A stretch of DNA of 64,000 bases, from contig NC_090402.1 in assembly GCF_036365525.1 (NCBI RefSeq), positions 49,017,700 through 49,081,699 of the forward strand, written 5' to 3'. A program made the translations under genes and the position numbers. Of this stretch, positions 3,906 to 52,555 are shown piece by piece (within the stretch, counting starts at the first letter, position 1; each line of letters begins with the position of its first letter). Below the pieces are notes generated by a model, which saw only the letters and a list, made by a program, of their open reading frames with translations, was not told the DNA's origin and did not search any database. The DNA comes from Heterodontus francisci (Eukaryota).

Positions 3906-4189
3906 TAATCTGCTTTAGTGATAAGTATTGGCCAGGACTTGGTGGGGTGGTGAGGAGGTGGGTAAGGGTTGTGGTAGGGGAGTACCCTTCTGTTGTTCTT
4001 TTAAATAGTGCTCTGGGATCTTTCATGTCCCTCTGAGAGAGCAAATGGAGCCTCAATATAATGCCTCATCCGAAAGACAGCGCCTCCAACTCCCTCAGTA
4101 CTGCACTGGGAGCTAAAGGCCAGCTCAGGTGTACAATTTAAACCCGACCCGGGCCCGACCCGACCACATCTAACCCGAACCCGACCCAG

Positions 4190-22631: not shown

Positions 22632-23354
22632 ATGAAGATGAGGACTCGGTTGCTGACCTGGGATGTGAAAAATACTCTGCTCTGAGTGCGTCACACAGTC
22701 GGTGAGCTGTACTCTTCAGAGGCCAAGTTGCACGGGATCCGTGTGGAGGCCAAGGCTCTTAACAGGTCATTCCAAGCCTTCGTCCGAATGCAGGACAAGT
22801 TGTTCCCCAACTACGGTCAAGGCCAGGGCCTGAGCTCCCATCAGTGGTGGGTGGAAATTGTCAAACGGACCTTTCGGGTCTGCGGGGTGAGCGATGAGCT
22901 GGTATTGTCTCTTTTGGCAGAGAACCTTTATCAAGGATTCAGCAGTGCTAAGAACTGGGAGGTGTTCAGCGATGTGAAGGACACCCTGATTCACTGTGAC
23001 AGACTGGGCATCCACATGGCAGTGATTTCCAACTTCGACCACCGTCTGGAGCAGATTTTAGTCGATTGCGGCCTGCGGGAGCATTTCCAGTTTGTGTTGA
23101 CGTCGGAGGGTGTTGGAATCGCCAAACCAGACCATCGGATCTTTACTAAGGCCCTGGGCTTCGCTCAAGTGGAACCCAAGCAGGCCATGTACATCGGCAA
23201 TGATGTGTGGATGGATTATCTGGCGGCCAGGGCTGTGGGGATGGAGAGTTACCTGATCTACAGAGGGAAGGAGGAACCCGCCAAGGCGAAGGGACTGGTG
23301 CCCAGGGCGCACATCCTGCACTCCCTGCAGCAGCTGCACAGCCTCCTTAAATGA
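22632..23354 (+). pseudogene. HDHD3: HDHD3 (HAD-like hydrolase domain-containing 3), single coding exon with premature stop
   Basis: MKMRTRLLTWDVKNTLL*VRHTVGELY...FPNYG...WW...AVISNFDHRL...FVLTSE...KPDHRIF...YIGNDVWMDY...RAVGM matches HDHD3 (LLTWDVKDTLLR...). TGA at 22683-22685; acceptor CAG at 22591-22593. Confidence 0.88.
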
Positions 23355-27981: not shown

Positions 27982-29074
27982 ACTACATTAAAGGCACTAT
28001 ATAAATGTAGGTTGTTGCTGAAGTTGTAAAATTTGACCTCCAGAGATTGTGGGACCAAAGTCATTACTCAATGTTTCTCTCTGGTGCGCCTTGCTGTCAT
28101 TGTGTTAAATTAAAAGAAAGCTGCTATGAAATCACTTTGCAGCCTTTTATGCTCCAGTAGAAACCTTCTCAGTATCTCAATATCAAGAGGCAGATGTGTC
28201 TGGGAAAGACGACTGTAAACATGGAGGTTCAGGATCTGAAAGGACTCGGGACTTATTGTAAATGGCTGTTACATTGCAGTGAATACTGGACTGGGACAAG
28301 TGATGATGGTGCAGCTGTGTAAATAGCACCAAATACTGTCTGCCTGTGTTACAACAATGTGACCTGTGAATGGATGCATCAAACTGCCACCTGTGCAAAA
28401 GGTAAGAATTAATCACAGAAGAAAATGAGAAAAACCAACTGTTTCATGCATTTGTTTTTATTCAGTTTTATTTGCTTTGCTAAGCAGCCTTACATTGTGA
28501 TAATTGTACAGACACTAGGAGCGCAGAGGCAAGGGAAAGGCTGTGAGGCATCAATTCCATCAGTGATATGACTTCAACAACATTGTTTGAAATATTACAG
28601 AATCAGTACGACATCAGTCACTGGTTCAAATAGTGTCCCTGTTTAAACTAAAGTCTCATTGGGGCCAGTTATTATTGGATCTAACCAGCAATATTCTCCA
28701 GGGCTCTGACCAGTGCCCAGCATGAACATGTTGCCCTGATATTTGTTGAATGTTTTCAGGCACTTGTTGGATGACCTGAGCTGTAATATAAAGTGTTAGT
28801 TGCTGATTCCATTTTTAAGAATTAAGTTTTGTGTAATTTTCACATGTTTGTACTTTCAGATTGAGTTTATAATTCAATGTCACACTGACCCCCACAAGCA
28901 AATATTTGTAAATCGGCAGCACAGATTTCAGCTCATTAAATTATGATCAGTAATTTCTTTATTTCAGCACATGTAGACAAATAGCTAGGGTTGTAGTTCA
29001 ATGCGTTCATCCTTCATTAAATGGTCCTTCCCTCCATGGAGAATGAGATCAATCAAACTGCAATAGATGTAAAA

Positions 29075-33255: not shown

Positions 33256-34233
33256 GTGACAGCTCTCCCAGCTTTGGCACAAGCCCCCAGTTGTTAGTAA
33301 GGAGGACTTTGCAGGGTCGACAGTGCTTGGTTTGCCATTGTGGTTTCCGATGCCTCAGTGGATGCCGAGTGGTCCATCTGGTTTCATTCCTTATTGACTT
33401 CGTAGCCATTAGCTACAACTGAGTGGCTTGCTAGGCCATTTCAGAGTCAACCACATTGCTGTGGGTCTGGACACATGCAGGCCAGACCGGGTTAGGACAG
33501 CAGATTTCTTCCCTAAAGGACATCAGTCAACCAGTTGGGTTTTTACAATAATGGACAATGGTTTCATGGCCATCATTAGACTAGCTTTTTTTAAATTCCA
33601 GATTTATTAATTGAATTGAAATTCCACCTTCTGCCCTGGTGGGATTCGAGCCCTTGTCCCCACAGCAATACCCTGGGTCTCTGGGTTACTAGACCAGTGA
33701 CAATGCCACTACGCCTCTGCTTCCCCTGTCACATTTCCTACAATACAGCAGTGACTATACTTCAAAAGCACTTCATTAACTTCAATTTCTTCGGGATGTC
33801 CTGTAGCTGGGACAGGTGCCATATAAATGTAAGTCTTTCTTCCTTTACATTCTTTTTGCCTCTCTCATTTCCTTCCTCACTTCTCCTCTCTAGTCCCTGT
33901 ATTCAGCTTGATCCTCTCCCCTATTATTAACCTGATATTTATTCTAAGCCTCCTAGTTTTGTTTTATTTTTATCTCAATCTCTTTTGTCATCCCAGTGGC
34001 TCTAGCTTTGTATGCCCTCCCTTACCCCATCATAGGAATAAGTGTAGTCTGCACCTAATCTATCTTCTTAAGGCCTCCCATTGCTTATTTACTGCTTATG
34101 AAAAAGGACAAGAAATTATAAGAGGTGATAATTTGTCAGCTGTACTTAAGCTCTGCCGTCTGTTTCTCTGTGACTGGCAGCACAGCATAGATCAGTTCAG
34201 AGGCGAGGGAAACTTAGAATGACTTCTACTTAC

Positions 34234-34544
34234 TCAGACCTCAGCTGGAGGCTCTTGCTCAGCCGGAGGCTCTTGCTCAGCCGGAGGCTCTTGCTCAGCC
34301 GGAGGCTCTTGCTCAGCCGGAGGCTCTTCCTCAGCCGGAAGCTCTTGCTCAGCCGGAGGCTCTTCCTCGGCCGAAGGAGGTGCTTTCTCCTCAGTAACTG
34401 GATATTTTGGCTTCAAAGTTTTCTTCATTTTCTTTGCTACTTTCTTCACTATTTTCTTTAGTTTCTTTGCTACTTTCTTCATTATTTTCTTTATTTTCTT
34501 TGCTATTTTCTTCGCTATTTTCTTTGCTTTCTTCAGGAACTTCT
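34234..34544 (-). CDS. Prepropeptide exon 5: Lys-rich helix plus acidic Pro/Glu tail and stop
   Basis: Acceptor ttgccttctatttcag|AGAAGTTCC; ends GTCTGA|gtaagt. Corresponds to ORF 34234-34560. Confidence 0.85.
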
Positions 34545-37500
34545 CTGAAATAGAAGGCAATATTACATCTATCTGGTGTTTTCATTTTGGAACTTTTGGT
34601 CCAAGTTGCAGCTTCGATAATTAGTGATTTATTCAGCTGCATTTCTTAAAACTCCTCCACTTCATCTGGGTTTGCTTATTCAGTGCTGTAGCACCAAACT
34701 GTGCCCTGATGTGGTACTAAATTCTCTTTCAGGGATAACTAATGTGAGAAATTAAAGTGATAAACTGATGCAGTGAGCGATTTTAATGTTAGGGCTTGGC
34801 AGCATTAATGGAGCTGAGAACTGAGCAGTTCACTTTGACCGGGGGATGTTTTCTGCAGGTAACAATGCATTAAGTTACTGTGACGTAGCATATAGAAAGC
34901 ACTGGGTCCTCATAGTTTACACCCCAAGGATTCCTGAAAGCAAACTAGGGAGAAATATCACAAGTCCCACTATAATTTTCTAAATCTCTGAAAAAGTACT
35001 CTGAAAAGTAAAATTGTGCCAGGGACTGCTGGGAAATATCATTCTCTTCAAAAAGGGAGACAGGCACAAGCTGAGAATTTATAATCTCACTTCAATTGTT
35101 GGTAAACCACTAGACTACATAATACCAGAAAGAATTATTATGGCCAACACTTGGGGAGAAAGATGATTAGAGGAGAGAAAGGGAGTTAGTTAGAATGGAA
35201 AGGTAAGGTGAGTGATATATACTTATATACTTTGTTCTTTGATGATCTGGACTAAGGAATTGAGGAAACAATATCGAGATTTGCCAAAGACACCCAATTG
35301 AGGAGGATGGCCCATTCAGACAAAGAGCTTAAAAGATATTAGTTGGTTACAGGATTGGCAGGTGAGTAGAACTCCCCTCCTGACTCCCCAAAGCCTGTCC
35401 ACCATCAACAAGGCACAAGTCAGGAGTGTGATGGAATACTCTCCACTTGCCTGGACGGGTGCAGCTCCAACAACACTCAAGAAGCTTGACACCATCCAGA
35501 ACAAAGCAGCCCGCTTGATTGGCACACCACGCACAAACATTCACTCCCTCCACCACCGACGCACAGTGGCAGCAGTGTGTACCACCTACAAGATGCACTG
35601 CAACAATGTGCTGGTGTCCTATGTCGGCCAGACCAGGTAAGGACAGCAGATTTCCTTCCCTAAAGGACATTAGTGAACCAGATGGGTTTTTACAACAATC
35701 GACAATGGTTTCATGGCCATCATTAGACTAACTTTTAATCGCAGATTCATTAATTGAATTCAGATTCCACCTTCTACTGTGGTGGGATTCGAGCCCATAT
35801 CCCCAGAGCAATAAAATAAAAGCAAAATACTGCAGATGCTGGAAATCTGAAATAAAAGCAATCAATGCTGGAAATACTCAGCAGGTCTGGCAGCATCTGT
35901 GGAGCGAGAGAGGAGCAGAGTTAACGTTTCAGGTCAGTGACCCTTCTTCAGAACTGACAAATATCAGAAATGTAATAGGTTTTAAGCAAGTAAAGTGGGG
36001 TGGGGTAAGAGATCACAAAAAATAAAGTGTTGTTAGGATAAGGTCACAGAGAATAACTGACCACAAGGTCATGCAACAGAGGCAAATGGTATGTTACTGG
36101 TGTGCTGAAAGACAAAGCGTTAGTGCAGAGAGGATGTGAATAGACTGTAAAGCACAAAGCACTCCAAGCACAAACATTTCTGTTTTTTTAAAAAAACAGA
36201 AACAGTGGGTAGGCACAGTAGAAACAAACTAACCAAAATAAAAAAAATTAAAATAAAATAATCAAATAAAAAACAGTAAAAGAAAAAATAACTAAACTTA
36301 AAATGGGGCGGGGGGGTGGGGAGGTGGGGGTGGAGCCGTCATGCTCTGAAATGAATGGATTCAGTGTTCAGTCCGGCAGGGTGTAGTGTGTCTAATCGGT
36401 AAATGAGATGCTGTTCCTCGATTTTGTGTTGTTGTTTGCTGGAACACTGCAGGAGTCCCAGGACAGAGATGTGAGCATGGGAGCGGGTGGGGGGGAGCGG
36501 GGGGTTGGTGGTGTTGAAATGGCCAGCAACCGGAAGTTCAGGGTCCTGCTTACGGACTGAGTGGAGGTGTTCTGCAAAGCGGTCACCCAATCTGCGTTTG
36601 GTCTCCCCAATGTAGAGGAGACCACATTGTGAGCAGCGAATACAGTACACTAAATTGAAAGAAGTACAAGTAAATCGCTGCTTCGCCTGAAAGGAGTGTT
36701 TGGGGCCTTGGATAGTGAGGAGAGATGACAATTCCCTTCCCTTCCTCAACTTCTCTGTCTCCATCTCCAGTGATAGACTGTCTACTAATATTCATTATAA
36801 GCTCACCGACTCCCACAGCTACCTCGACTACACTTCTTCATACCCTGCCTCCTGTAAGGACTCCATTCTCCCAGTATCTCCGCTCCGACGCATCTGCTCT
36901 GATGATGCAACCTTCCACGACAGTGCTTCTGATATGTCTTCCTTTTTCCTCAACCGAGGATTCCCCCTCCACTGTGGTTGACAGGGCCCTCAACCGTGAC
37001 CAGCCCATTTCCTGCACCTCTACCCTCGCCCCTTCCCCTCCCTCCTAGAACCGCGATAGGGTTCCCCTTGTCCTCATTTTCCACCCCACCAGTCTCCACA
37101 TCGAAAGAATCATCCTCCCCCACTTCCGCCACATCCAGCGTGATGCCACTACCAAAGGCATCTTCCCCTTCCTTCCCCTGTCAGCATTCCGAAGGCATCG
37201 TTCGCTCTGCGACACCCTGGTCCACTCCTCCATTACCCCCACCATTTCGTCCCCTTCCCACGGCACCTTCCCCTGCAATCACAGGAGGTGTAATATCTGC
37301 CCATTTACCTCCACTCTCCTCACTAGCCAAGGCCCCAAACATTCCTTTCAGGCGAGGCAGCGATTTACTTGTACTTCTTTCAATGTAGTATAGTGTACTC
37401 ACTGCTCACAATGTGGTGTCCTCTACGTCTGGGAGACCAAGCGCAGACTGGGTGACCGCTTTGCGGAACACCTTCGCTCAGTCCATAAGCATGACCCCGA

Positions 37501-40500
37501 GCTTCCAGTTGCTTGCTATTTCAACAACCCCTCCCCCGCCCCTGCTCTCATGCTCACATCTCTGTCCTGGGATTGCTGCAGTGTTCCAGCGAACATCAAC
37601 GCAAGCTCGAGGAACAGCATCTCATTTATTGATTAGGCACACTACAGCGTGCCGGGCTGAACATTGAATTCAATCATTTCAGAGCATGACTGGATCCCCC
37701 TTTTTATGTTTAGTTATTTTTTTATTATTTCTGTTTTCTTTTTTCTTTGTTATTTGGATATTTTATTTTAGTTTTTTTTTAATTTGGTTAGTTTGCCTAC
37801 TCACTGTTTCTGTTGTTTTTTTTTAAAATTTAATGTTGTGCTTGGAGTGCTTTGTGCTTTACAGTCAATTCACACCCTCTCTGTACTAACGCTTTGTCTT
37901 TCAGCACACTATTAACATACCATTTGCATTTGTTCCATGACCTGGTCAGTTATTCTCTGTGACCTTGTCCAATCAAAACCTTGTCTTTTGTTCTCTCTTG
38001 CCCCACCCCCCGCTTTACTTGCTTAAAGCCTTTTACATTTCTAATATTTGTCAGTTCTGAAGAAGGATCACTGACCTTAAACGTTAACTCTGCTTCTCTC
38101 TCCACAGATGCTGCCAGACCTGCTCAGTATTTCCAGCATCTCTTGTTTTTATCCCAGAGCAATACCCTGGGTCTCTGGGTTACCTAGTCCAGTGACAATA
38201 CCACAACGCCACTGCCTCCCCTAAGGTAGGTAGATCTTGCTTTTTGTTGGGGCCCAGGATTCTTCTTGAACCTTGTTCGCTGTAGGTGACTTTTCTGTCT
38301 TGGGGGTTCATGTGTCTTCAGTGGATTCAGAGGCTTGTGAGAAAGAGATGGGAGCAGACAGGAGAGATCTTCTCAGTCCAGGAGCAAACAGACACTCTCA
38401 CATGGAGATTGGACCTGCTTGAGAAGGGCAGCGGCGGCAGGAGATAAAAACCGGCGGCAAAGAGGGAAGCCCAGCACACGGAGAGTGGACCTGCGTGAGA
38501 AGGGCAGCGGTGGCGGGAGATAAAAACCGGCGGCAGAGAGAGAAGCCCAGCACACGGAGAGTGGACCTGCGTGAGAAGGGCAGCGGCGGCGGGAGATAAA
38601 AACCGGTGGCAGAGAGAGAAGCCCAGCACACGGAGAGTGGACCTGCTTGAGAAGGGCAGCGGCGGCAGGAGATAAAAACCGGCGGCAGAGAGCCACTTCT
38701 ACCTGTTAGTGTTAAAGTGTGACGTCACAGGAAAACAGGTAGGTGATTGGTGGGTATCTCTTCGTGTCTCTTTGAATTGGCCAAGAGGTTTAAATCAAGA
38801 GACGTTATTACCGCTGAAGAGTACAGTTAAGAAATTCTCTTTGAAAATATTTAACATCCAAATTAATTAATTAAATAGAATAAAGATGGCTGGGCAGGTG
38901 ATGCATCGGAGCTGTCGTATATGGAAGCTGGCGGACGCCGGTAGGATCCACATGTGGCCGCATCTGCAGCAAGTGTTGGCTGCTGGAAGACCTTTGGCTC
39001 CGAGTTGATGAGCTGGAGTCCGAGCTGCAGACACTGTGATACATCAGGAAAGGGAGAGTTACCTGGACACTGTTTTAGGAGACAGTCAGACCCCTTAGAT
39101 TAATTACATCAAAGTTGGACCGTGGTCAGGGACAGGAGGGTGCGACTGTGAGTGAGGCAGGTATGGGGATCCAGAATTTAGCTTTGGAGCAGCCTCAGCC
39201 AGTGCCGTTATCCAACAGGTACAAGATTCTTGCTCCCGGTGTGGACAAGGGCACAGACTGCAGGGAGAATGAGCGAACTGACCACAGCACCGTGGTTCAG
39301 AGTGCCATTCAAGTGTGGGGGAGAAGAGAGAAATGTAGAAGTAATAGGGAATAGCATAGTTAGGGGAATAGATACTGTTCTCTGCAGCAAAGATAGGGAG
39401 TACCGAAGGCTGTGTTACCTACCTGGTGCCAAGGTTAAGGACATCTCTTCTGGACTGGAGAGGAACTTGGAGTGGGAGGGGAAGGATCCAGTTGTTGTGG
39501 TCGACATAGTTAGGATTAGGAAAGAGATACTGCTGAGGGACAATGAGCAGCTCGGGGCTAAATTGAAAAGCAGAGCCACAAAGGTAATAATCTCCGGGTC
39601 ACTACCTGAGCCACAGGTAAATTGGCATAGGGTAGATAACATTAGAGAGGTAAACGTGTGGCTCAAAGATTGTTGTGGGAGAAATGGTTTCCGAATTATG
39701 AGGCACTGGCACCAGTACTGGGGAAGGAGAGAGCTGTTCTGTTGGGATGGGCTTCATGTGAACCATGCTGGGATCAGAGTCCTGGTGAATCGTATAACTA
39801 GGGTTGTAGACAGGACTTTAAACTAATTAGTGGGGGGGAGGGTTCAATTGAAGGGAAGTTTTTAAAAGATTTAAAAGAAATGAGAGAGCAAAGATGCAGG
39901 GTAGTGAGGAGGCGAATGATAATCAAAGTGTGACAGGAAGTGCCAGAAAATATAAGCAAAAGAGTGCATCAGAAATTAGAACCAGAATGAGTAATAATGG
40001 CAAAAAATCAAAGTTTAAGGCTCTTTATCCGAATACACGCAGCATTTGTAACAAGATAGATGAGTTGACGGCACAAATAGAAATAAATGAATGTGACTTG
40101 ATAGCTATTAGGGTGACCAAGACTGAACGCTCAATATTCAAGGATATTTGACATTTCGGAAAAATAGGCAAAAAGGAAAAGGAGGTGGGGTAGCTTTGTT
40201 AATAAAGGAAGGTATCAGTGCGGTGGTGAGTCGTGATAAAGGTGCAATAAATGGTGATGTGGAATCAGTTTGTGTGGAAATAAGGAATAGCAAGGGGAAG
40301 AAGTCGCAGGTGAGAGTCGTCTATACGCCTCCGAAGAATTGCCTCACTGTAGGACAAAGTATAAATTGGGAAATAATGGAGGCGTGTAAGAAGGGCGCAA
40401 CAATTGTCATGGGTGATTTTAATTTGCATATTGACTGGACAAATCAGATTGGCAGAGGTAACATGGAAGACGATTTTGTCGAGTGCATCAGGGATTGTTA

Positions 40501-43500
40501 CTTGGAGCAATATGTTGTGGAACCTACCTGGGAACAGGCAATTTTAGATCGAATAATGTGTAATGAAGTAGAATTAATAAGAGATATTGTAGTTAAGGAT
40601 CCTCTAGGGGGTAGCAATCACAACATGGTAGAATTGCAAATTCAGTGTGAGGGCGAGCAACTCGGGTCTCAAACCAGTGTCCTCAATTTAAACAAGGGCA
40701 AGTACAGAGGTATGAAGAAAAAGTTATCTAAAGCGGGCTGGGAAAAGAGACTAAGAAGAAGGTCAGTGGATGAGCAGTGGAAGACATTTAAGAAGATATT
40801 TCATAATGCGCAACAAAAATTTATCCCGGTCAAAAAGAAGGACTCGATGAGAAGGATGAACCACCCGTAATTAACAAAGGCAGTCAAGGAGACTTTCCAA
40901 TCAAAAACTAAAGCATACAAAGCGGCAAAAACTAGTGGTAGGCCAGAGGATTGGGAATTTTTTAGGAACCAGCAATGGATGACTACAAAAGCTAATAAAG
41001 AGGGAGAAAATTGATTATGAAAGTAATTTGGCAAGAAATATAAAAACAAACAGCAAGAGCTTCTACGGGTATATAAAAAGAAAGAGAGTAGCTAAAGTGA
41101 GCGTGGGCCCCTTGGAGAATGCAATTGGAGAAGCGGGGAACAGGGAAATGGCCGATAATTTAAGCCAATATTTTGCATCGGTCTTCACAGTGGAGGACAC
41201 TATAACATCCCACAGATATCAGATAAGCAAGGAGCTAATAGGAGGAAAGATCTTGTAACAGTCTCTATCACGAGGGACAAAATATTTGATAAACTAATGG
41301 GACTAAAGGCACCAGGGCCTGATGGCCTACATCCAAGGGCTTTAAAGGAAGTGGCTGCAGAGATAGTGGAGGCATTGATCAAAATATTCCAGAACCAACT
41401 GGATTCCATGACGGTCCCAGCAGATTGGAAAACTGCTAATGTGATGCCCCTGTTCAAGAAGGGAGGGAAACAAAAAGCAGGAAACTGTAGGCCAGACAGC
41501 CTCACATTGGTCGTTGGGAAAGTGCTAGAGTCCGTTATTAAGGGAGAAATAGCAGGACATTTAGAAAAGCTTAAAGCAATCAAACAGAGCCAACATGGTT
41601 TTGTGAAAGGGAAATCATTTTTGACAAATTTTCTTGAGTTCTTTGAGGATATAACAAGCATAGTTGATAAAGGGGAACCGGTAGATGTAGTGTATTTGGA
41701 TTTCCAGAAGGCATTCGATAAGGTGCCACATAAAAGATTATTGCACAAGATAGGAGCTCACAGTTTTGGGGGTAATGTATTAGCATGGATTGAGGATTGA
41801 TTAACTCTCAAAAGATAGAGAGTTGGGATTAATGGGTCTTTTTCAGGTTGGAAAGGTGTAACTAGTGGAGTGCCACAAGGATCAGTCCGAGAGCCTCAGT
41901 TATTTACTATCTATATTAATGACTTGGAGAAGGGGGCAGAGTGTAATATATCCAAATTTGCTGATGATACAAAAATAGGTGGGAGGGCATGTCGTGATGA
42001 GGACATAAGGAATTTGCAAGGGTATATAGATAGGTTGAGTGAATGGGCAAAAACTTGGCAGATGGAGTTTAATGTCGGAAAGTGCGAGGTCATGCACTTT
42101 GATAGGAAGAATCAAAAGGCAGACTATTATTTAAATGGAAAGAGACTCCAAAAAAGTGCAGTACAGAGGGATCTGGGTGGTCTTGTGCATGAAACACAAA
42201 AAGTTAGCATGCAGGTGCAGCAAGTAATTAAGAAGGCAAATGGAATTTTGGCCTTTACTGCTAGGGGGTTGGAGTTTAAAAATAGGGAAGTCTTGTTGCA
42301 ACAATGTAGAGTGTTGGTGAGGCTGCACCTGGAGTACTGTGTACAGTTTTGGTCCCTGTATTTAAGAAAGGATTGGAGGCAGTTCAAAAGAGATTCACTA
42401 TGCTGATTCCTGGGTTGAAGGGGTTGACTTATCAAGAACAGCTAAACAGGTTAGGCCTTTATTCATTAGAGTTTAGAAGAATAAGGGCTGATCTTATTGA
42501 AACGTACAAGATTTTGAGGGGGCTTGACAGGGTAGATGTTGAAAAGATGTTTCCACTAGTGGGGGAATCTCAAACAAGGGGACATAGTTACAGAATAAGG
42601 GGACACTCATTTAAAACTGAGATGCAAAGGAATTTCTTCTCTGAGGGCAGTGAATGTCTGGAATTCTCTACCCCAGAGAGTTGTGAGGCTAGATCAGTGA
42701 AAGTATTTAAAGAGGAGATAGATAGATTTTTGAAATATTGGGGAGTTGAGGGCTATGAGGAGCTGGCACGAAAGAGGAGTTTGAGGTCTGGGGCAGATCA
42801 GCCACGATCTTATTGAATGGCAGGGCAGGCTTGAGGGGCTGAATGGCCTACTCCTGCTCCTATTTCTTATGTTTTTATGTTCAGTACAAACTGTTTGTAG
42901 AATTCAGAAAAACCCAGATTGCCAAGCAGGTTAGTCATTTGACGAACTGGTCTGACCACGTCTTGGATTGTATCACCTTACCAGTCTCTGGAATACTCCT
43001 TTCACACACCATACCTGGTGATCAAGGTGCATTGAGGGTTAAATGGTCAGGGAATAGTCCTTTGTCCTTTGAATCACCATGTGTTAATATGCAAATGTCT
43101 TTTCCAGCCATGGCTGATCTGTTTAACAAGTTTCTTTCTTCATTCCAGTAACAGTTTAGTCTCAATATTCAAGACAAAATTAATTTGCCTCATTCTTGGC
43201 AGGTCGGGGCCTAACATGACAAGTGCCTTTGATGTTTTAGGAAAGGAAGTGGAAGGCTGGGTTAGCAAGTTTGCCGATGACACGAAGGTTGCTGGAGTTG
43301 TGGATAGTGTGGAAGGCTGTTGTCGGTTGCAACGGGACATTGACAGGATGCAGAGCTGGGCTGAGAAGTGGCAGATGGAGTTCAACCTGGAAAAGTGTGA
43401 AGTGATTCATTTTGGAAGGTCGAATTTGAATGCAGAATACAGGTTTAAAGACAGGATTCTTGGTAGTGTGGAGGAACAGAGGGATCTTGGGGTCCATGTC

Positions 43501-46500
43501 CATAGATCGCTCAAAGTTGCCACCCAAGTTGATAGGGTTGTTAAGAAGGCGTATGGTGTGTTGGCTTTCATTAACAGGGGGATTGAGTTTAAGAGCCGCG
43601 AGGTTATGCTGCAGCTCTATAAGGCCCTGGTTCGACCACACTTGGAATATTGTGTTCAGTTCTGGTCGCCTCATTATAGGAAGGATGTGGAAGCTTTAGA
43701 GAGGGTGCAGAGGAGATTTACCAGGATGCTGCCTGGACCGGAGGGCATGTCTTACGAAGAAAGATTGAGGGAGCTAGGCTTTTCTCATTGGAGCGAAGAA
43801 GGATGAGACGTGACTTGATAGAGGGGTACAAGATGATGAGAGGCATAGATACAGTGGATAGCCAGAGACTTTTTCCCAGGGTGGAAAGGGCTATCACCAG
43901 GGGGCATAATTTTAAGGTGATTGGAGGACGGTTTCGGGGAGATGTCAGAGGTAGGTTCTTTACACAGAGAGTGGTGGGTGCGTGGAATGCGCTGCCAGCG
44001 GTGGTAGTAGAAGCAGATACATTAGGGACATTTAAGCGACTCTTGAATAGGTACATGGATGATAGTAGAATGAAGGGTAGGTAGTTAGTTTGATCTTAGA
44101 GTAGGTTAAAGGTTCGGCACAACATCGTGGGCCGAAGGGCCTGTACTGTGCTGTACTGTTCTATGTTCTATCTCAAAGCGCTTTACAGCCAATAAAGTAC
44201 TTTCGAAGTGTAACAAAAAAACTTCCATTTATAAAGTGCATTTAACGTAGTAAAATGTCCCAAGGTGTTTAACAAGAGCAATAGCAATAAAAACATTTTT
44301 GACACTGAGCCACAGAAGGTGCTATCAGGGCAGATAATTAAAGGCTTGATCAGAGTAGATTTTAAGGAGCATCTTAAAAGAGGAGAGTGAGGTAGACAAT
44401 TAGATACAATGAATAGAGTCAAGCTCAGATAATTACACCCAGCTAGATAGCAGGTATTGGTGAAAGAGGTTGTGGCCAATTTGTGCAAAGCCAAGACTCC
44501 AGGGAGAACTCCCCTGCTCTTTTTCAAATCATGCCATGGGATCCTTTATAGCCACTTGAAAGAACAAACAGGCTCAGTTGAACCTCTCATCTGAAAGGCA
44601 GCATCTCTGACAGTGCAGCACTCCCACAGTACTGCACTGGAGTGTCAGCCTCAACTTTGAATGCAAGTCTTTGGAGTAGGCTTGAATCCATAACCTCTGA
44701 CTCAGAGGAGATAGCATTGCCACTGAGCCATGGCTGATACATTGAGTAATTTTGTCTGTATGTGCGCACGTGGGTCTGTGTGAGATGAGGCCACAGTAAT
44801 CCCTGTTCCTTTTGATAGGACCAGAAATTCAAGCTTTTCAAAAAAAGGAAAATAAATTTCAGTAAGGTAATAATTTGACAGCTGTGCTTAAGCTCTGCAG
44901 TCAGCTTCTCTGCAACTTGCAGCACAGCACAGATCAGTTTAGAGTTGAGGAGCTGGAAATGACTTCTACTTACTCAGGCCTCGCTTCGCAGTGTCAGTCT
45001 GATCCTCAGGCAGTCCTGATTGAATGAGTGTCCTTGCTATTGTTTCTAAAATAGGAGACAGAATTATACTTTTGTGTCATTTTCACTTTCGGATTTTTGA
45101 TCCAAATTTAATTAATTAATGATTTATTCCCTCCATTTCTTAAACCATCTCAATTTAGTCTGGCCTAGCTTATGCACTGCGACAGCATATTACTGTGCCC
45201 TAATGTGGAGGAGAGTGTAGGGTCTGAGACTCTTTATAGGAAGGATATGAAAGTAACGGAAAAGGTCAGCGTGATAACAGGGTCGAGAGGCCGCAGTTAT
45301 GGGGAGAAACTTGAGACGGTGGGACTTTACCGAATCTGAGAAAGATGACCTGGCAGAGATCTTTAAGATTCTGGAAGGTTTTGAGCAGGTAATGAGAAAT
45401 TGTTTCCATTGCCTTCAAAAGGATAATTAGAGGGCATAAACTTTAGATAATAGCAGAAAGAATTAAAAGGGAGGTTTGAAATCAATTCTTTACACAGAGG
45501 GTGTTGGAACCCGGAATTCTCTGCAACAAAGCATTATTGAAGCAAATCTATCAGTTCTTTTTAAAGACTATTAGTTAGTTGCTTGAAAAAGAGGAATATT
45601 CGTGTTTGGGGAATGGGGTGGGGTGAGTTACTCATGGAGAAAAACTTTCAAGATTTCAGTTCTTCAAAAGGCTAGAGTCAGAGTAAGGGACTGTTCAGAA
45701 GGAGATATGGGGTAGAGTAGATGGCAGAGAAAGTGTGGAATGAGGCCAAGGAGGGATTTAAAGGTGAGGACAAGGCTTTTGAATCGAATTGTGACATGCA
45801 GGACAGAGGATGAACTCTATTCTCCACTTCTCTGATGGGATTTGTCTTGTCTGACAATCATCTGACAATACAAAGTCAATCGGGGAGTTGAGGGAAGTGA
45901 AGAGGTAGAATTGGATGCCATCAGCATGCATTGGAAAGATGATTCTATGCTTACACATAATACTGAGACACCATTTACAATTACATTTGTGTTTGTGCTC
46001 ACATAAGTAGAAACCAGTACACACAGGTACTTAATTACTCATAAATGCTGACAGGTACATCAATGTGCTTAGAAGTGCATAAAGACAAATGCAATATATA
46101 AAGTGAGTATTCGACCAACGAGGGCTGGGCAATAAATGTGCCCTTTCCCACATGCCAGGAAAAGACTTTCTCATAGAATAGTTTTCCTGTCAGAAATTGT
46201 TTTCCGTGGAATTATGTTCTGATGAGGAAATATCAATGCTTTCACCAGGTAGTAGGTAACATTGAGAACCACAGAGAGTGAAGATGGAGCCAATGTTAAC
46301 CCACGGTGTAGACTGTGAGATTACAGCACAGTAACTGAGTAACGGGAGATACCGACATCCACATACATCCCACATGATCTACAATACATGTCTCCAATGA
46401 GACCCAGCCAACCTTGGCCCACTGAGCTCATTTCTCATACGTGGGGCACAAGATGTCAGACTGGGTCAGTTTCCTTGGGATCCAAGTGGCTTCCAGGAAT

Positions 46501-49500
46501 ATCGGACAATGTTATAACCAAGTCCCTCCATCAATCCTTTCACTATTGTATTGTTTCAGTAATTAAAAGGAAATGCTTACCAGCTATTTTGCTGCCAATT
46601 CTAAAAAACAACCTACCAATAAATCGGGGTGATGACTCTAAAGGAACAGGATGACAAATGGCACTGATTCGTAGTCGAGATCCGCTGTATTTGTTAAAGT
46701 TCGCTAATATCACTTAGCACTGAGTGCTGGCAAAAGTATATTACAGTAGCCAGTGCTCAAGTGCCAACTGAAAATGTATTCACAGTTAAATTCTGTAAAA
46801 TCCCACTTCTTGTTTTATTTGGCAGTTTACATGGTCCGGCACAAAATAGCACAGTCTAAGGGGACCAACACCCTTCTGACCCCAAATAACCTCCCTCTTC
46901 TGATCTGGCCAAGATCATCTCACTGAGTGGAGACCAAGGTTCGAACTTAGAGCAGGAGGAGGCCATTCAGCCCCTGCACCATTTAGTGAGATCATGGCTG
47001 ATCTCTACCTCAACTGCATTTACCCACCTTTGCTCCATATCTGTTGATAGCTGGACCTAACAATCAACTATCAATGTTAGTCTTGAAAGCTCTTGACCTC
47101 CAGCATCCACAGCCTTTTGGGGGAGGGAGTTCCAGATTTCCAGTACCCTTTGTGTGAAAAGGAGCTTCCTGATTTCACTCCAGCCAGCCTAGCTCTAATT
47201 TTAAAGATTATGTTTCCTTGTTCTCAATTCCCCCATCAGGGAAAATAGTTTCTCCATATCTACCCGATCAAATCCTTGTAACATTTTAAGCACCGCAATC
47301 AGATAATCCCTCAATCTTCTAAACTCAAGAGAATACAAGCCAAATTTATGCAAACTGTCCTCACAATTTAACCGTCTAAGCCCTGGTATCATTCTGCTGA
47401 ATCTCCGCTACACCAAAGCCAATGTGAAATATGGTGCCCAGAACTGAGCGAAGCACTCCGGGGCGTTTGATCAAGGCTGTGTACAACTGAAGCAAGACTT
47501 GCTCCTCTTTGTCTCAGAAGCAAAGGACCTTTATTGCGGAGCACACTCTAATTTGTTAGTTTTCCTCACTTACCCAGATCTTGATTCTCTAGATTGCTAA
47601 CCTCAGACTCTGAATCATCCAACTCACGCAACGCCTCTTCTGAAATAAATAGAAAGTGTTGTATTTTCACAAAGTTATCAGTATAGATGATGATCTCACG
47701 TTGTCAATTACCTGCAGAATTCTTTCAATATTCGAAGCAGCTGAGTGGAGATGTTTGCTGTCTGCTCATAGAATTGCACAGCATGTACAACACAGAAACA
47801 GGCAATTCAGCTCAACTGGTCTGTGCTGGTGTTCATGTTCCACACGAGTCTCCTCCCACCCTACTTCACCTCATCTTATCACATATCCTGCTATTGCTTT
47901 CTCCCTCATGTAGCTTCCCCTTAAATGCATCCATGCCATTCATCTCAACTGCTCCTGTGGTAGTGAGTTCCACATTCGAGCCACTCTGGGTAAAGAAGTT
48001 CCTCCTGTATTCCCTATTGGTGACTGTTCTGTGTTTGTGGCCCCTTGTTCTGGTCTCCCCTACAAAGGGAAACATCTCTACGTCTACACTATCGAACTCC
48101 TTAATAACTTTAAATTCCTCCTATTGGGCCACCCTCAGCCTTTTCTATTTTCCCTAATTCACTTAGGGTTTACCACAAGAGATGTTCCAAGATAGACTAC
48201 TGCTTCCTGAAACAATCCCACCCATCCCAAATAACACACTGTGATATGGGAAAAGAGTGGGAAGAGATGTGTAATGTCACCTCCTCAAGTACCTTTTATT
48301 CTTGTTTTAACTTGGCTGTGAGTAAGGGTAGGTTCCTGACAACAGAAAACCAGGAAACCTTCAATTCACAGCCAGTTGAGCACAATGGATGGAGAGGCTG
48401 CCCCTGGACTCTCACTTCAGTCTGTTTGCCCTCTTTTTGTTCCCCATAAATGTCATTTCAGGGTGACACTGAGCCTTGTGCTTCCTCGCCAATGTTTCTC
48501 CATTCCAGCCCGCTCCTTAAGCTATTGACCCATTCACTAGGATTGGCTCCATGGCCATGGCTCTCCTTTAGACATGTGGGGGAACCACGACAGGAAGTGC
48601 TGGCAGACTGTGCTACTGAGGAGGGAGTCCCAGCCCTGGATCCTGCCCTCAGACAGTGACCCACATCAGGGAAAGTTCTATGTGATTGAGAGTGGCAGTC
48701 GTGGCCAATCTCCCCTTTTCTAACTCAGGTTGCTGCTCCCGATTGTGATGCCCCTGAGATCCTCTCACTCTGTGCAGTCGAGGTTGGGGTGAACTGAGCC
48801 TGTCACAGTCTGTAAGGCAGAGATACACATGGTATGTGAACAGTCCAGACACTTACCCAGCTCTTGCATCTGTGGCTCAGTAACGTCAAACTCAGAATCA
48901 TCCTCCTCGCGCAGCGCCTCTTCTGAAATAAATAGAACATGTATTGTCTCTGTTGTTTCAGTAAAGAACATTTGCTAAATTACTGCCTGTCCCTCTGTCT
49001 AATGTACTTCAGACTGTTGAGTTCAGTTACGCCTGTCCTTTGTTTCTTATTACAGCTTAATTCAGTTTTGCTGGGTGGGATGTCTAATAGACAGGATGTG
49101 TAACAAGTGGGTGTGTTATGGGTGTGTGTTTTCCAGGCACCAATCCACTGACACCCATTTTATACCAACACCGACAGGTAAAATCAGCCCTATACAATAT
49201 CTGCTCCACCACACTACCAGGCAGTGCATTCCAAATCCTAACCATGTACTGTGTAAAAAAATGTTTTTCCTCATGTCGTTGTTGCTTCTTTAGCCATTCA
49301 CCTTAAATCGGTGTTCTCTGGTTCTTGATCCTTCTGCCAATGGTTCTCCCTGTCTACCCTGTCCAGCCCTTTTGTGATTTTGAACATCACTATCTAATCT
49401 CCACTCAACCTTCCCCTCTGCAGAAAACAGCTCCAGCTTCGCCAATGTATCCTCGTAGCTGAAGTCTCTCATCCCTGGAGCCATTCTCGTAAATCTCTTC

Positions 49501-52206
49501 TGCACACTCTTGAATGCCTTCGCATCTTCTGATATTGTGGTGCCCAGGATTGGACACAATGCTGCAATTGAGGCTGAATCGGTTTTATACAAGTTCACCA
49601 TAACTTCCTTGCTTTTGTACTTTTTGTACTCTGTGCCTCTATTTAGAAAGCCCAGGATCCCACATGCCTTATTAATGCCATTCCTAACCTGTCCTGGACA
49701 TATATCCCAGGGCCCTCTGTTCCTTCACCCCCTTTAGAATTGTATCCTTTATTTTATAATGCCTTTGCTGGAATTCCTACGAAAATATATAAGTTGACTC
49801 TTCTCTGCATTGAATTTCATCTGCCACATGTCTCCCCATTCCACCAGCCTGTCTAAGCCCTCTTGAAGGCAATCACTATCCTCATCACAGTTCACAGTAC
49901 TTCCAAGTTCTGTGTCATTTTCAGATTTTGAAATTGTGCCCTGCACACCCAGATCTAGGTCATTAATATAGATCAAGAAAACCAGAGCTCCTCGTACCAA
50001 TTCCCAGGGGAACCCAAGTATATACCTTCCTCCAGTCTGAGAAACAATTGTTGACCACTACTCTCTGTTTCCTGTCACTCAGCCAACTTTGTATCCATGC
50101 TGCTAATGTACCTTTTATTCCATGGGCCTCAACTTTGCTGACAAACCTGTTATGTGGCACTTTGATAACACCTTTTGGAAATGCACGTACACCACATCAA
50201 CCGCATTACACTCAAGCATTTCTGTTACCTCACCAATAAATTCAATCAAGTTAGTTAAACATGATTTGCCTTTAACAAATCTGTGCTGGCTTTCCTTAAT
50301 TGTTCCGTTTGTCTAAGTGACTGTTAATTTTGTCCCAGATTATCGATTCTAAAAGTTTTCCTGCCACCAAGGTTAAACTGACTGGCCTGTAGTTGCTGAG
50401 TTGATCCTTTACACTGTTTTCGGAAGAAGGGTGTAACATTAGCAATTCTCCAGTCCTGTGGCATCACCCCTGTATCTAAGGAGGATTGGAAGATTATGGC
50501 CAGCACCTCCGCAATTTCCACCCTTGCTTCCCTCAGTATTTCGAATACATCTCATCCAGTCCTGGTGACTTAGCAATTTTAAATACAATCTGCCTTTTTA
50601 ATAGGTCTTCCTTATCAATTCTTAGCGCTTCCAGTGTCTCAAGTACCTCTTTCCCTACAACTTGGGAAGCATCTTCTTCTTTGGTAAAGACAGATGCAAA
50701 GTAGTCATTTGGTACCTCAGCCACACCCTCTGCCTCCATGTGTAAATCCACGTTTTGGTCCCTAATGGGCCCCACCCCTCCTCTTACTACCCTTTTAATA
50801 TTTATAAGCCTATGGAAGACGTTTGGATTGCCTTTTATGTTAGCTGCCAGTCTCTTTTCATACTCTATCTTTGCCTCTCCTATTTCCTTTTTCACTTCCA
50901 CTCTGAACTTTCTGTATTTAGACTGATTCCCACTTTTGTAAGATCAACCTGACATCTTTCATATGCATCCTTTTTCTGCTTCATCTTACTCTCTATCTCA
51001 TTCATCGTCTAGAGAGTTTTGGCTTTGCTTGCATACTTTTTCCCTTCATGGGACTGCTGTCCCTTGTTCTCATTGCAGCTCATATCAGTTTCATTGGGCA
51101 GGGTGTTTTACTGGTGGGCTGTATAGGGTGTAAAACAGGTGGATGTATAATGGGTGGGATGTATAATGAGTGGGATGTCTCATGGGCATGGTGTATCGCA
51201 GGCGGGTATTACCGCACCAATCCACTGATACCCATTTTTCACCAACACCAACATTTAAAGTCTGTCCATTACAATATCTAACACTTTGCTGAAATCTAAA
51301 TATCTGGCACCCACATAATTCCCGTGGCCAGCAAAGTTCACCATTTCTTTCAAGACCTTCAGTAAACTTGTTAGACAAGTCTTCTCATAATTGCATAACT
51401 AATCCCTCTAATCCTACTGTATCCCAGTTCATTATCCCCTCTTTCAGAATACCTACCAACGATTTACCCTCGACCAATGACAAAGTCTCTGACCTTTTGC
51501 CTCTTGGGTCATCCGATGGGATTTTTTTTTCAAGATTGCTGCTACATTCCTTACTTTCCAAACCTCAGGCTGTGATCTCATTCCTAATGATTCCCTAAGA
51601 TAAGGGCATGCACAAGACCAATCTTCCTGGCCATTTCTTTAAATAACACTGTCGGACACCCACTCAGGCTTAGTACCTTGTCTTCATTAATCTCCCTCAG
51701 TTTATCAGTGAAATTTAAGTTCCCTTCAGCACTTCTCTCAGATAGGTAAATACGAAGATGTGGAGGATTCACAGGAAACAGAAAACAATAATTAATTTAG
51801 TACAATTACTATCACTTGCTCACTTGTTATTATGGGACCTTTGGGATCTTTCAATGGTTCCATCCTTCCCAATATTTCATTACAATGCTATTGGTTACAA
51901 GGAGGTGTCCAGCAAGTGCTGAGCTGCTGTTTCAACCTCAACACATTCAGTCACTCCTGAATCTTCTGACACTGTTGCAGAAATGTTATATCTTTTACTC
52001 CTCTCTGACCCATGATAGAATAGTCGGAGCAGATACTCTCCTTTAGAATGTTTGTAGGTCTCCAGAAGAGCCTGTATTTCTGTTAGGCTCAGTTGAGATC
52101 AGACCCCAATTGAACAGGTAATTAATATTAACTCACCTGCCCCAGCAGAATGGAGGGCGATCGCACACAATGTGGCCAACAGCACTAGAAGAGAAAGTGG
52201 CTTCAT
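34234..52206 (-). CDS. Spliced 194-aa secreted prepropeptide, cationic amphipathic host-defence-peptide-like; join(52206-52137,48922-48857,47639-47574,45045-44974,34544-34234)
   Basis: Exon lengths 70+66+66+72+311=585 nt form one open frame with GT-AG phase-1 junctions: MKPLSLLVLLATLCAIALHSAGA EEALREEDDSEFDVTEPQMQEL EEALRELDDSESEVSNLENQDL ETIARTLIQSGLPEDQTDTAKR GLKKFLKKAKKIAKKIAKKIKKIMKKVAKKLKKIVKKVAKKMKKTLKPKYPV TEEKAPPSAEEEPPAEQELPAEEEPP(AEQEPP)x4AEV*. Confidence 0.85.
34240..34370 (-). repeat. 18-bp coding tandem repeat (GCTGAGCAAGAGCCTCCG, AEQEPP), about 7.5 units
   Basis: Visible on + strand as repeated CGGAGGCTCTTGCTCAGC. Confidence 0.95.
34410..34533 (-). repeat. 33-bp coding tandem repeat (KKx KKxx KKxx), about 3.7 units
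   Basis: AAGAAAGCAAAGAAAATAGCGAAGAAAATAGCA / AAGAAAATAAAGAAAATAATGAAGAAAGTAGCA / AAGAAACTAAAGAAAATAGTGAAGAAAGTAGCA / AAGAAAATGAAGAAAACTTTG. Confidence 0.9.
35814..38152. mobile_element. Penelope-like element (RT C-terminus + GIY-YIG) with long inverted arm and 12-bp TSD
   Basis: Minus ORF 36339-36764 NLVYCIRCSQCGLLYIGETKRRLGDRFAEHL (GIY-YIG). Plus-strand PFLNFSV...IHYKLTDSHSYLDY and a second GIY-YIG at ~37340-37690. CCCAGAGCAATA at 35802-35813 and 38153-38164. Confidence 0.88.
35919..35955 (-). ncRNA. Minimal hammerhead-ribozyme motif in Penelope terminus
   Basis: AGTT-CTGAAGA-A-GGGTCA-C-TGACCT-GAAA-CG-TT-AACT: CUGANGA and GAAA cores, stem II hairpin, palindromic stem III and AGTT/AACT stem I. 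Variants at 1672-1708, 2059-2095 and 38053-38089. Confidence 0.6.
38395..38692 (+). repeat. 76-bp GC-rich tandem monomers (about 4) at the 5' end of a CR1
   Basis: GGACCTGC recurs at 38411, 38487, 38563 and 38639. Confidence 0.92.
38395..42883 (+). mobile_element. Essentially full-length decayed CR1 LINE (5' monomers, ORF1 esterase, ORF2 APE+RT, 3' UTR) in intron 4
   Basis: ORF1 from ATG 38887 including 39230-39826 (VIGNSIVRGIDT...WDGLH); APE 40148-40870; RT 41297-42406; tail ATTTCTTATGTTTTTATGTTC. Confidence 0.9.
43230..44170 (+). mobile_element. CR1/HER1 LINE 3' fragment, relatively young
   Basis: ORFs 43069-43806 (KFADDTK...[13 protein letters not shown]) and 43788-44084; tail GTACTGTTCTATGTTCTAT. 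Confidence 0.9.
44974..45045 (-). CDS. Prepropeptide exon 4 (ETIARTLIQSGLPEDQTDTAKR-GL)
   Basis: tgtctcctattttag|AAACAATAGC...GAAGCGAGGCCTGA|gtaagt; 72 nt, phase 1-1; carries the KR site. Confidence 0.85.
46945..47510 (-). mobile_element. CR1 LINE 3' fragment
   Basis: ORF 47201-47392 (IPGLRRLNCEDSLHKFGLYSLEFRRLR) plus 3' UTR. Confidence 0.75.
47574..47639 (-). CDS. Prepropeptide exon 3 (EEALRELDDSESEVSNLENQDL)
   Basis: ttctatttatttcag|AAGAGGCGTTG...GATCTGG|gtaagt; 66 nt, phase 1-1. Confidence 0.85.
48857..48922 (-). CDS. Prepropeptide exon 2 (EEALREEDDSEFDVTEPQMQEL)
   Basis: ttctatttatttcag|AAGAGGCGCTG...GAGCTGG|gtaagt; 66 nt, phase 1-1. Confidence 0.85.
49210..51047 (-). mobile_element. 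Decayed CR1 LINE fragment (RT region)
   Basis: ORF pieces 50533-50901, 50324-50521 (DWRIANVTP), 49963-50160, 49749-50000. Confidence 0.8.
52137..52206 (-). CDS. Prepropeptide exon 1, signal peptide MKPLSLLVLLATLCAIALHSAGA
   Basis: GGGAAAATGAAG start context; basic n-region, hydrophobic core, A-G-A cleavage motif; donor CAG|GTGAGT. Confidence 0.88.
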
Positions 52207-52224
52207 TTTCCCGAGCTGTGAAGT

Positions 52225-52555
52225 CGAGTGATGAGCTACAGTCTCCTCTGCCCCTTATGTACCATCTTATCATCACATCTCAGAATTTGTCCTAATCTCA
52301 CTTTCCAAGAAAAACCTTGTTCTTTGTCAGGACAATGCTCACCTGGTTGACAATCTGATTCCAGGTAATAGCTGTGACAGATAGGAGGAGGCCAGACCTC
52401 AAATGAGTCACTGCATGTCTTTAAAGCATTCATTGTTCTTTCATTTCTTATTCTCAGCCCTGTTATACAAAGATTGCCCATAACAGAGGGAGTCACAGTG
52501 TGAGTCAAATGATGAGATCGGTAGATTCTGAGGTGCAGGCCTGTTGCGGTCAAAT
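52225..52555 (-). promoter_or_regulatory. Candidate proximal promoter of the prepropeptide gene
   Basis: TATA-like TACATAAG (52261-52254), Inr-like TCACTC about 30 nt downstream, GATAAG (52271-52266), STAT/GAS TTCCAAGAA (52303-52311), AP-1 TGAGTCA (52404-52410, 52501-52507), RUNX-like TGCGGT (52545-52550). Confidence 0.55.

Follow-up and report, generated by a model that had tools for sequence, protein, structure and literature searches.

Cathelicidins, notably the Lys-rich helical peptides of snakes, join an amphipathic helix ending in a Pro-containing stretch to an acidic segment beside the mature peptide, and pardaxins and grammistins are secreted cytolytic deterrent peptides. An 11/3 register with a straight apolar strip is shared by the 11-mer helices of membrane surfaces (apolipoproteins, synucleins and perilipins) and by designed Lys/Leu/Ala lytic peptides; in exchangeable apolipoproteins, 11-mer helices carry acidic as well as basic residues on the polar face. 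Gene structures have been described for several helical peptides of frogs and fish. In pipid frogs, according to the covered portion of PMC3731216, the peptides are divided between two exons and bordered by RXXR, KR or RR, their number grows through exon duplication, and in tandem genes they diversify while the signal is conserved. Piscidins, in the covered parts of PMC7369796 and PMC4995043, have four exons, the first non-coding and exon 2 encoding the signal and the start of the mature peptide, with the mature peptide placed directly after a 22-residue signal and with lengths of up to 44-65 residues; the covered part of PMC7369796 also describes tandem genes in which the signal is conserved and the mature peptide changes fast. 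Ranid genes have a separate conserved signal exon and the rest of the frame, encoding one peptide, in one exon, and their tandem clusters evolve by birth and death, leaving pseudogenes and orphan signal exons (covered portion of PMC13128954). For sharks and skates, the covered portion of a 2019 review names only transferrin, squalamine and kenojeinin I as isolated antimicrobials (PMC6795676), kenojeinin I is the sole cartilaginous-fish entry in the covered portion of a 2025 review table (PMC12734493), and shark, skate and elasmobranch go unmentioned in the portion of PMC13518417 that was covered. Here we describe a real and apparently undescribed peptide-precursor gene of a shark; the literature searched, which took in few subscription papers and no supplements, contained no description of such a shark gene and no link of HDHD3, its neighbour, to such peptides.

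The window, by which we mean the whole stretch of DNA analysed (64,000 nucleotides, C32:49017700-49081699), lies in a 6.0-Gb genome, and retroelement frames are abundant in it. The initial annotation had described a strict 3-4-4 periodicity of Lys pairs encoded by a 33-bp repeat, and the minus-strand frame is indeed open and reads as stated there. Past the first three residues, the spacing of the pairs is 3,4,4,3,4,4,3,4,4,3,4, and the identity of positions as Lys or non-Lys is preserved at lag 11 in 30/30 cases. Tandem Repeats Finder (TRF) reports a 33-bp unit in 3.7 copies with 86% matches and 0% indels (34411-34533). The 44 residues ahead of a Pro-Lys-Tyr-Pro motif include 24 Lys and no Asp, Glu or Arg. 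Twelve Lys pairs had been counted; the pairs are real, but the genomic stretch holds 11, and the twelfth is made by splicing, from the last base of exon 5 and the first two bases of exon 6.

The hydrophobic moment of this helix peaks at 98.4 degrees (0.787 per residue), within the 98-100 degrees that had been predicted for it, and 0/5000 residue shuffles reach this value (shuffles were scanned in 2-degree steps, the real sequence in 1-degree steps). At 98.2 degrees the apolar residues span a 132-degree arc that contains none of the 24 Lys; at the heptad angle of 102.9 degrees, 18/24 Lys fall inside the apolar arc. Any tandem expansion would yield periodicity. However, the repeat units vary in 0/18 Lys-codon columns as against 8/15 apolar-codon columns (Fisher p = 0.0005), the variant residues being Ala, Val, Ile, Leu, Met and one Thr, all apolar or small. 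Variation thus spares the Lys codons and touches only apolar ones, so repeat expansion alone does not account for the pattern, and the earlier proposal of selection on helix geometry is supported. Constraint is equal in the two halves of the helix.

To place this frame in a transcript, we aligned contigs from four runs (two studies; putative RNA) to positions 33400-52500. Three of the runs, X1, X2 and X3, derive from one sample (S1); X4 carries another organism label and belongs to another study. Among the matches listed, all four runs have a record whose alignment ends exactly at 34544 with more letters beyond it (X1 record 1, X2 record 8, X3 record 15 and X4 record 23), and a pyrimidine-rich acceptor adjoins this position. 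The X1-X3 records show 0 differences from the genome, and X4 record 23 has 5 substitutions and 0 gaps across 201 bases. The X1 and X2 contigs carry 72 unplaced letters beyond 34544, after which alignment resumes at 46617; we assigned these letters to exon 5 (45045-44974) by exact length, last base and bin depth. Exon 5 has a good acceptor and ends in A, as the exact break at 34544 demands. Since exon 5 is open in phase 1 only, the Lys frame of exon 6 is fixed, and together with the splice at 34544 in 4/4 runs this bears out the view of the initial annotation that the Lys frame is the real one. A competing Glu/Ser/Asn-rich acidic frame of exon 6, which stops at 34391, was discarded, as exon 5 has stops in both other phases. 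A DNA search of the 6.0-Gb genome found no intronless copy of the gene, and this, together with the exact skips between GT and AG ends, argues that the runs contain spliced transcripts.

Further exons were sought by splice-site scans, and exon 1 by a search upstream of the repeat for sequences that combine an ATG with a hydrophobic core and a strong donor. The resulting gene model has six predicted coding exons; the five upstream of exon 6 are all phase 1, and the first is signal-like.

Features of the predicted shark gene (positions are those of the window)
Feature	Position	Strand	Basis
Putative promoter: TATA-like hexamer 53 bases before ATG, GATA-type site 66 bases before	52254..52272	-	pattern match only
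Exon 1, coding part: ATG, 23-residue signal-peptide-like sequence, phase-1 donor	52137..52206	-	scan, best of 2 candidates
Exon 2: 66 nt, phase 1-1, acidic pro-segment, net -8	48857..48922	-	splice-site scan (predicted)
Exon 3: 66 nt, phase 1-1, acidic pro-segment, net -7, open only in phase 1	47574..47639	-	splice-site scan (predicted)
End of intron 3, in contigs of sample S1 (internal start, upstream acceptor or unspliced intron)	46638..46761	-	X1 record 1 to 46746, X2 record 8 to 46761
Exon 4: 57 nt, phase 1-1, Ser-Pro-Arg (candidate cleavage) and N-terminal half of peptide 1	46581..46637	-	splice-site scan
Exon 5 (72 nt, phase 1-1): end of peptide 1, brief acidic spacer, Lys-Arg site and start (two residues) of peptide 2	44974..45045	-	only well-scoring unique 72-nt candidate
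Exon 6, 5' part: 44-residue Lys-rich amphipathic helix, 11/3 register, net +24, 33-bp repeat	34411..34544	-	acceptor at 34544 used in 4/4 runs
Exon 6, 3' part: linker with Pro, then acidic tail of 58 residues (18-bp, 6-residue repeat; net -17) and stop	34234..34410	-	TRF

The predicted precursor is encoded by 642 nt and has 213 residues, or 201 if exon 4 is spliced at an inner in-phase donor after 46617, which leaves a 21-nt form of that exon. Its predicted order is signal peptide, two acidic exons, Arg site, peptide 1, acidic spacer, Lys-Arg, helix and acidic tail, with exon 3 a duplicate of exon 2 (82% alike). Predicted peptide 1 (~26 residues, net +3) opens with a Phe-rich apolar stretch and is amphipathic, with a moment of 0.46 at 100 degrees. 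Predicted peptide 2 consists of Gly-Leu-Lys and the 44-residue helix, 47 residues in all with a net charge of +25, and the Lys-Arg site (44986-44981, -) stands directly ahead of the helix. Both predicted peptides span two exons; peptide 2 is preceded by Lys-Arg and peptide 1 by a single Arg, so that the first site is monobasic, and there is neither a basic nor an amidation site at the end of the long helix to close peptide 2. The signal peptide and the cleavage sites were judged by eye and with a hydrophobicity filter. In phase 1, exons 2-6 encode no Cys. Beyond the helix, the Lys frame continues through the acidic 18-bp repeat (34240-34377, 7.7 copies by TRF) to a stop at 34236-34234, with donor-like sequence immediately after the stop and poly(A) signals downstream at 33968 and 33943. 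Charge sums to ~-15 in the acidic segments before the helix and to -17 after it; with a whole-chain value of ~-6 (exon charges plus junction residues), the acidic segments roughly cancel the charge of the helix. Acidic segments stand on either side of the helix, which appears to be one module of a predicted secreted precursor spread over six exons, a context that the initial annotation had not noted.

Exons 5 and 6 are related by duplication: their upstream flanks match at 118/163 bases and their downstream flanks at 110/130 (0/300 shuffles), and their interiors have diverged. At the shared 3' end, a one-base difference separates read-through into Lys-Arg-Gly-Leu in exon 5 from a stop in exon 6. 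The second peptide would have arisen through duplication of the last exon.

The contigs also include the main result against a secreted precursor, namely a transcript that contains part of intron 3. Past the exon 4 acceptor, the X1 contig runs 109 bases and the X2 contig 124 bases into intron 3; this form uses the inner donor of exon 4 and has no AUG before mid-helix. Since its first AUG lies inside the helix, the form would be unable to make the secreted precursor. It may have arisen in this one sample from an internal start, from use of an upstream acceptor or from RNA that had not been spliced. An acceptor-like site is present at 46767 (-), and its use would put a stop in frame. Among the contig matches listed, none joins exons 1-3 to exon 4, and the coverage of exon 1 (none in X1, X2 and X4, a trace in X3) is uninformative either way. 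A signal-bearing transcript that includes exons 1-3 is predicted from the splice sites and open frames.

A block of ~52 kb in the window (2451-54248) has a direct copy 55-60 kb off (G000:C32:48965121-49011855) at 93-99.5% identity, with several large insertion differences, and all six exons are intact in the tandem copy of the gene, which lies at a distance of 57 kb. In both copies exons 1-3 retain phase, open frames and strong splice sites; they differ at 2/202 bases, compared with 21/1800 in their flanks (p = 1); exon 1 differs at 0/70. Exons 4-5 differ at 15/129 bases (exon 4, 6/57; exon 5, 9/72), an excess both over their flanks (25/1200; p = 1.4e-6) and over exons 1-3 (p = 2.6e-5). Twelve of these 15 differences are non-synonymous, giving a dN/dS-type ratio of ~1.5 (12/89.6 vs 3/33.4) that alone is not significant. 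Conserved signal and pro exons combined with fast-changing peptide exons are, as far as this one pair of copies indicates, the signature of host-defence peptides.

The helix of the tandem copy keeps the register at a different length. It has 26 residues, 18 fewer than the helix in the window (54 bp; 11+7 residues, or five turns), and its moment peaks at 98.5 degrees. The initial annotation had expected length differences among homologues to come in 33-bp units, and this does not hold in the one paralogue compared, where the 54-bp difference is not a multiple of 33 bp. Over the last 19 residues of the shorter helix, four apolar positions differ and no Lys differs; one Gln and two Thr on its non-Lys side are a mild departure from the rule that this side is apolar.

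In the copy of the block inside the window, neither neighbouring gene is intact. The HAD-family gene HDHD3 (22632-23354, +) has a premature stop at codon 18 (22683-22685), and at the counterpart of a PRY-SPRY exon (~4187-4189) the alignment skips ~730 bases, including the start of that exon. An intact copy of the HAD-family gene outside the window (L013:8019-8738) is identical to the Heterodontus francisci HDHD3 record, which marks the animal as a horn shark or one whose protein is the same, and the PRY-SPRY exon lies beyond this copy (L011:9229-9792); from human gene order we take this neighbour to be BSPRY. ALAD is on the same contig at C32:52.93 Mb, 3.9 Mb from the gene. The peptide gene in the window is intact and matches the putative RNA contigs, which, together with the broken neighbours, favours a true duplication kept for the peptide gene; alternatively, the 52-kb pair may represent two haplotypes assembled in tandem rather than tandem genes. 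A third copy is inverted and degenerate. Its exon 1 (G000:C32:49086371-49086596, L017) has 85% identity and a broken donor, a remnant of the intron following exons 5/6 lies 29 kb further on (49115361-49115478, L020), and the 120 kb beyond the window contain no recognisable exons 2-6 of this copy.

An 860-residue reverse-transcriptase frame of a LINE (25485-28067, -), presumably RTE-like, is absent from the duplicated block, so it was inserted or lost after the duplication. A block of retroelement pieces (35946-41686) is likewise absent from the other copy and includes a 76-bp tandem repeat (38399-38692, 3.9 copies). The block also contains an inverted pair (35852-36724 / 37314-38152) with a frame at 36339-36791 that, from its motif, we take to be GIY-YIG-like. 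On contig C17, 39 weak DNA matches to the helix were rejected as non-homologous, as they fall in a long simple repeat of similar letters and share no flanks with the gene. This repeat (G000:C17:32618299-32621885, L003-L010) exceeds 3 kb, is open over its full length in four frames, of which one is rich in Lys, Ile and Thr, and matches the helix by composition only; it could be a repetitive coding exon or a satellite.

Protein searches for relatives found none. Residues 25-70 of exon 6 yielded 0/31 candidates among longer proteins, whole exon 6 yielded 0/3245 among proteins of near length, and exon 2 with flanking frame yielded 0/10 among longer proteins at E 10. A query of 43 residues from exon 6 of the tandem copy had 0 matches at E 0.001 among 1.84 billion representatives, and the ESM Atlas gave no usable match to residues 1-52. 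These protein queries were single exons, short or of low complexity, so their blanks weigh little against distant relatives. That no protein relative was found even from the same species suggests that the gene is unannotated as a protein in the searched collection. Pfam hmmscan of seven stretches gave no row for exons 2-5, and for exon 6 (best 25 of 26 rows) only helical noise below the cut-off. Among solved structures, 31 rows were returned at E up to 10 with designed helical bundles on top; apolipoprotein A-IV and apolipophorin III were among them at a non-significant E of 0.22 to 1.5.

Compared with the described systems, the shark gene would, by analogy, work most like the multi-peptide precursors of frogs. 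On the covered portions of the sources, pipid precursors (magainin, PGLa, CPF and XPF; cck-derived) likewise have a signal, a spacer, a cationic helical peptide encoded by two exons and secondary peptides, and likewise show tandem genes, exon duplication and a diversifying peptide region under a conserved signal. The basic sites agree in part: Lys-Arg precedes peptide 2 of the shark precursor, but its first site is monobasic rather than RXXR and no basic site closes peptide 2. Its helix is twice as long and is followed by a long acidic repeat tail. The pipid cluster lies beside cck, trak1, ulk4 and ctnnb1 in the covered portions, whereas the neighbours identified for the shark gene are HDHD3 and the PRY-SPRY gene, with ALAD 3.9 Mb away. 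No sequence match to pipid precursors was found, and the likeness is likely to be convergent. Ranid genes, so far as the covered text describes them, resemble the shark gene in their separate conserved signal exon and its orphan copies (compare the third shark copy, with its broken exon-1 donor); unlike them, the shark gene splits its frame over several exons and is predicted to encode two peptides.

Piscidins and pleurocidins, again in the portions covered, resemble the shark gene as fish genes with a linear amphipathic cationic helix spread over small exons, a C-terminal prodomain, tandem copies and a conserved signal. The amphipathic helix of +24 followed by a 58-residue tail of net -17 is a trait of the piscidin type, but the shark gene has six predicted coding exons, an acidic pro-region of two exons between the signal exon and peptide 1, and two peptides. 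The covered parts of the two piscidin sources name no flanking genes. PF08107 (Antimicrobial12) had no match in the shark's own genome (41/41 candidates scored) or in the exon-wise hmmscan; the control for the genome search found no match in 14 prokaryote genomes, which leaves its sensitivity unproven. The cathelin domain PF00666 had no match in the same genome (4/4 candidates scored), with a control that matched nowhere. As these genome-wide family searches had no working positive control, exon structure outweighs their blanks. Cathelicidins resemble the shark gene in a Lys-rich amphipathic helix with a Pro-containing end and an adjoining acidic segment; in contrast to cathelicidins, with their four-Cys cathelin domain, the shark precursor has neither a cathelin domain nor any Cys after the signal exon, and its helix is followed by an acidic tail rather than closing the chain. 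On sequence and exon structure, the gene would therefore appear to belong neither to the piscidins nor to the cathelicidins. The 11-mer membrane-surface helices and designed lytic peptides share its register, but the polar face of the shark helix is purely Lys, has no acids, and sits inside a cleavable precursor.

We consider that the gene is probably a secreted host-defence (antimicrobial) peptide precursor of a new shark family, with a probability of about 0.7. This reading draws on the helix geometry, the codon constraint, the splice at 34544, the phase-1 exons, the Lys-Arg site and the fast-changing peptide exons. A conserved signal with fast-changing mature peptides also matches the pattern reported for piscidins (PMC7369796) and pipid peptides (PMC3731216) in the covered portions of those sources. 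The same precursor logic and fast evolution would fit a secreted cytolytic deterrent of skin or fin-spine tissue, directed in the manner of pardaxins and grammistins against predators or parasites rather than mainly against microbes, and peptide 1 starts with a Phe-rich apolar stretch. Horn sharks bear fin spines. However, the long helix has a narrow apolar face with 24/44 residues Lys, and a narrow apolar face with high Lys favours anionic microbial over neutral vertebrate membranes, which makes a deterrent unlikely. We give a poorer chance to a non-secreted product, in which the transcript that starts in intron 3 either codes for nothing or encodes an intracellular basic protein (e.g. a germ-cell DNA-binding protein) beginning at the Met of the helix, exons 1-3 being silent relics. 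This form is the only one seen in X1 and X2, and its first AUG, inside the helix, is in frame for 82 residues. Against it stand the open frames, phase and strong splice sites that exons 1-3 keep in both copies, the excess of amino-acid change in exons 4-5, ahead of that AUG, and the equal constraint on the first half of the helix, while X1-X3 represent one sample.

Two further readings concern what the helix binds. The very high charge density, the regular Lys pairs and the secreted-precursor layout would suit a secreted protein that binds polyanions (heparin, proteoglycan, LPS or extracellular DNA, in granule packing or immune signalling) through a non-lytic helix; such a protein would have no need of a continuous apolar face under selection, and we regard this role as less probable again. 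An exchangeable-apolipoprotein-like or surfactant-like lipid binder made of 11-mer helices is the most improbable of these readings. The 11-residue register and the weak matches to apolipoprotein A-IV and apolipophorin III point towards it, but those structure matches are not significant (best E 0.22) and rank under designed helical bundles, no Pfam apolipoprotein family is among the best 25 of 26 rows, and the helix has no acids. The dibasic site and acidic pro-segments point instead to proteolytic release, and fast evolution also speaks against a lipid binder.

For a secreted host-defence precursor, general knowledge of prepro-peptides suggests how secretion, charge masking, Lys-Arg cleavage and membrane binding would follow one another, the Lys frame, the exon 6 splice, the amphipathic geometry, the tandem copy and the fast peptide-exon change being established at this locus. 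The acidic segments may offset the charge of the cationic helices while the precursor is secreted or stored in granules. Cleavage at Lys-Arg would fall to a proprotein convertase, and removal of the tail to another protease. Once freed, the helix could bind parallel to the surface of anionic microbial membranes. Its straight 11/3 apolar strip (132-degree arc) would sink into the head-group region over a length of ~7 nm, and the helix would disrupt the membrane in a carpet-like manner.

At roughly even odds, we propose more specifically that cartilaginous fish possess a family of gene-encoded helical host-defence polyproteins, of which this gene would be the founding member; the family would have no relation to piscidins or cathelicidins and would have arrived at the frog-skin design independently. 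Duplication of the last exon and a one-base shift would have turned a stop into a read-through Lys-Arg, and 33-bp expansion would then have produced an 11/3 helix that is unusually long, has an almost entirely Lys polar face and differs in length between copies by whole turns. The gene would offer a case of precursor growth by exon duplication, by a shift, in either direction, between stop and cleavage site and by repeat expansion in helical register. Its two natural length variants, of ~29 and 47 residues, would provide a means of asking how the length of an 11/3 helix relates to target range and salt tolerance. Few antimicrobial peptides are known from cartilaginous fish, and a dedicated, fast-evolving helical peptide gene, if our reading is true, would fill this gap.
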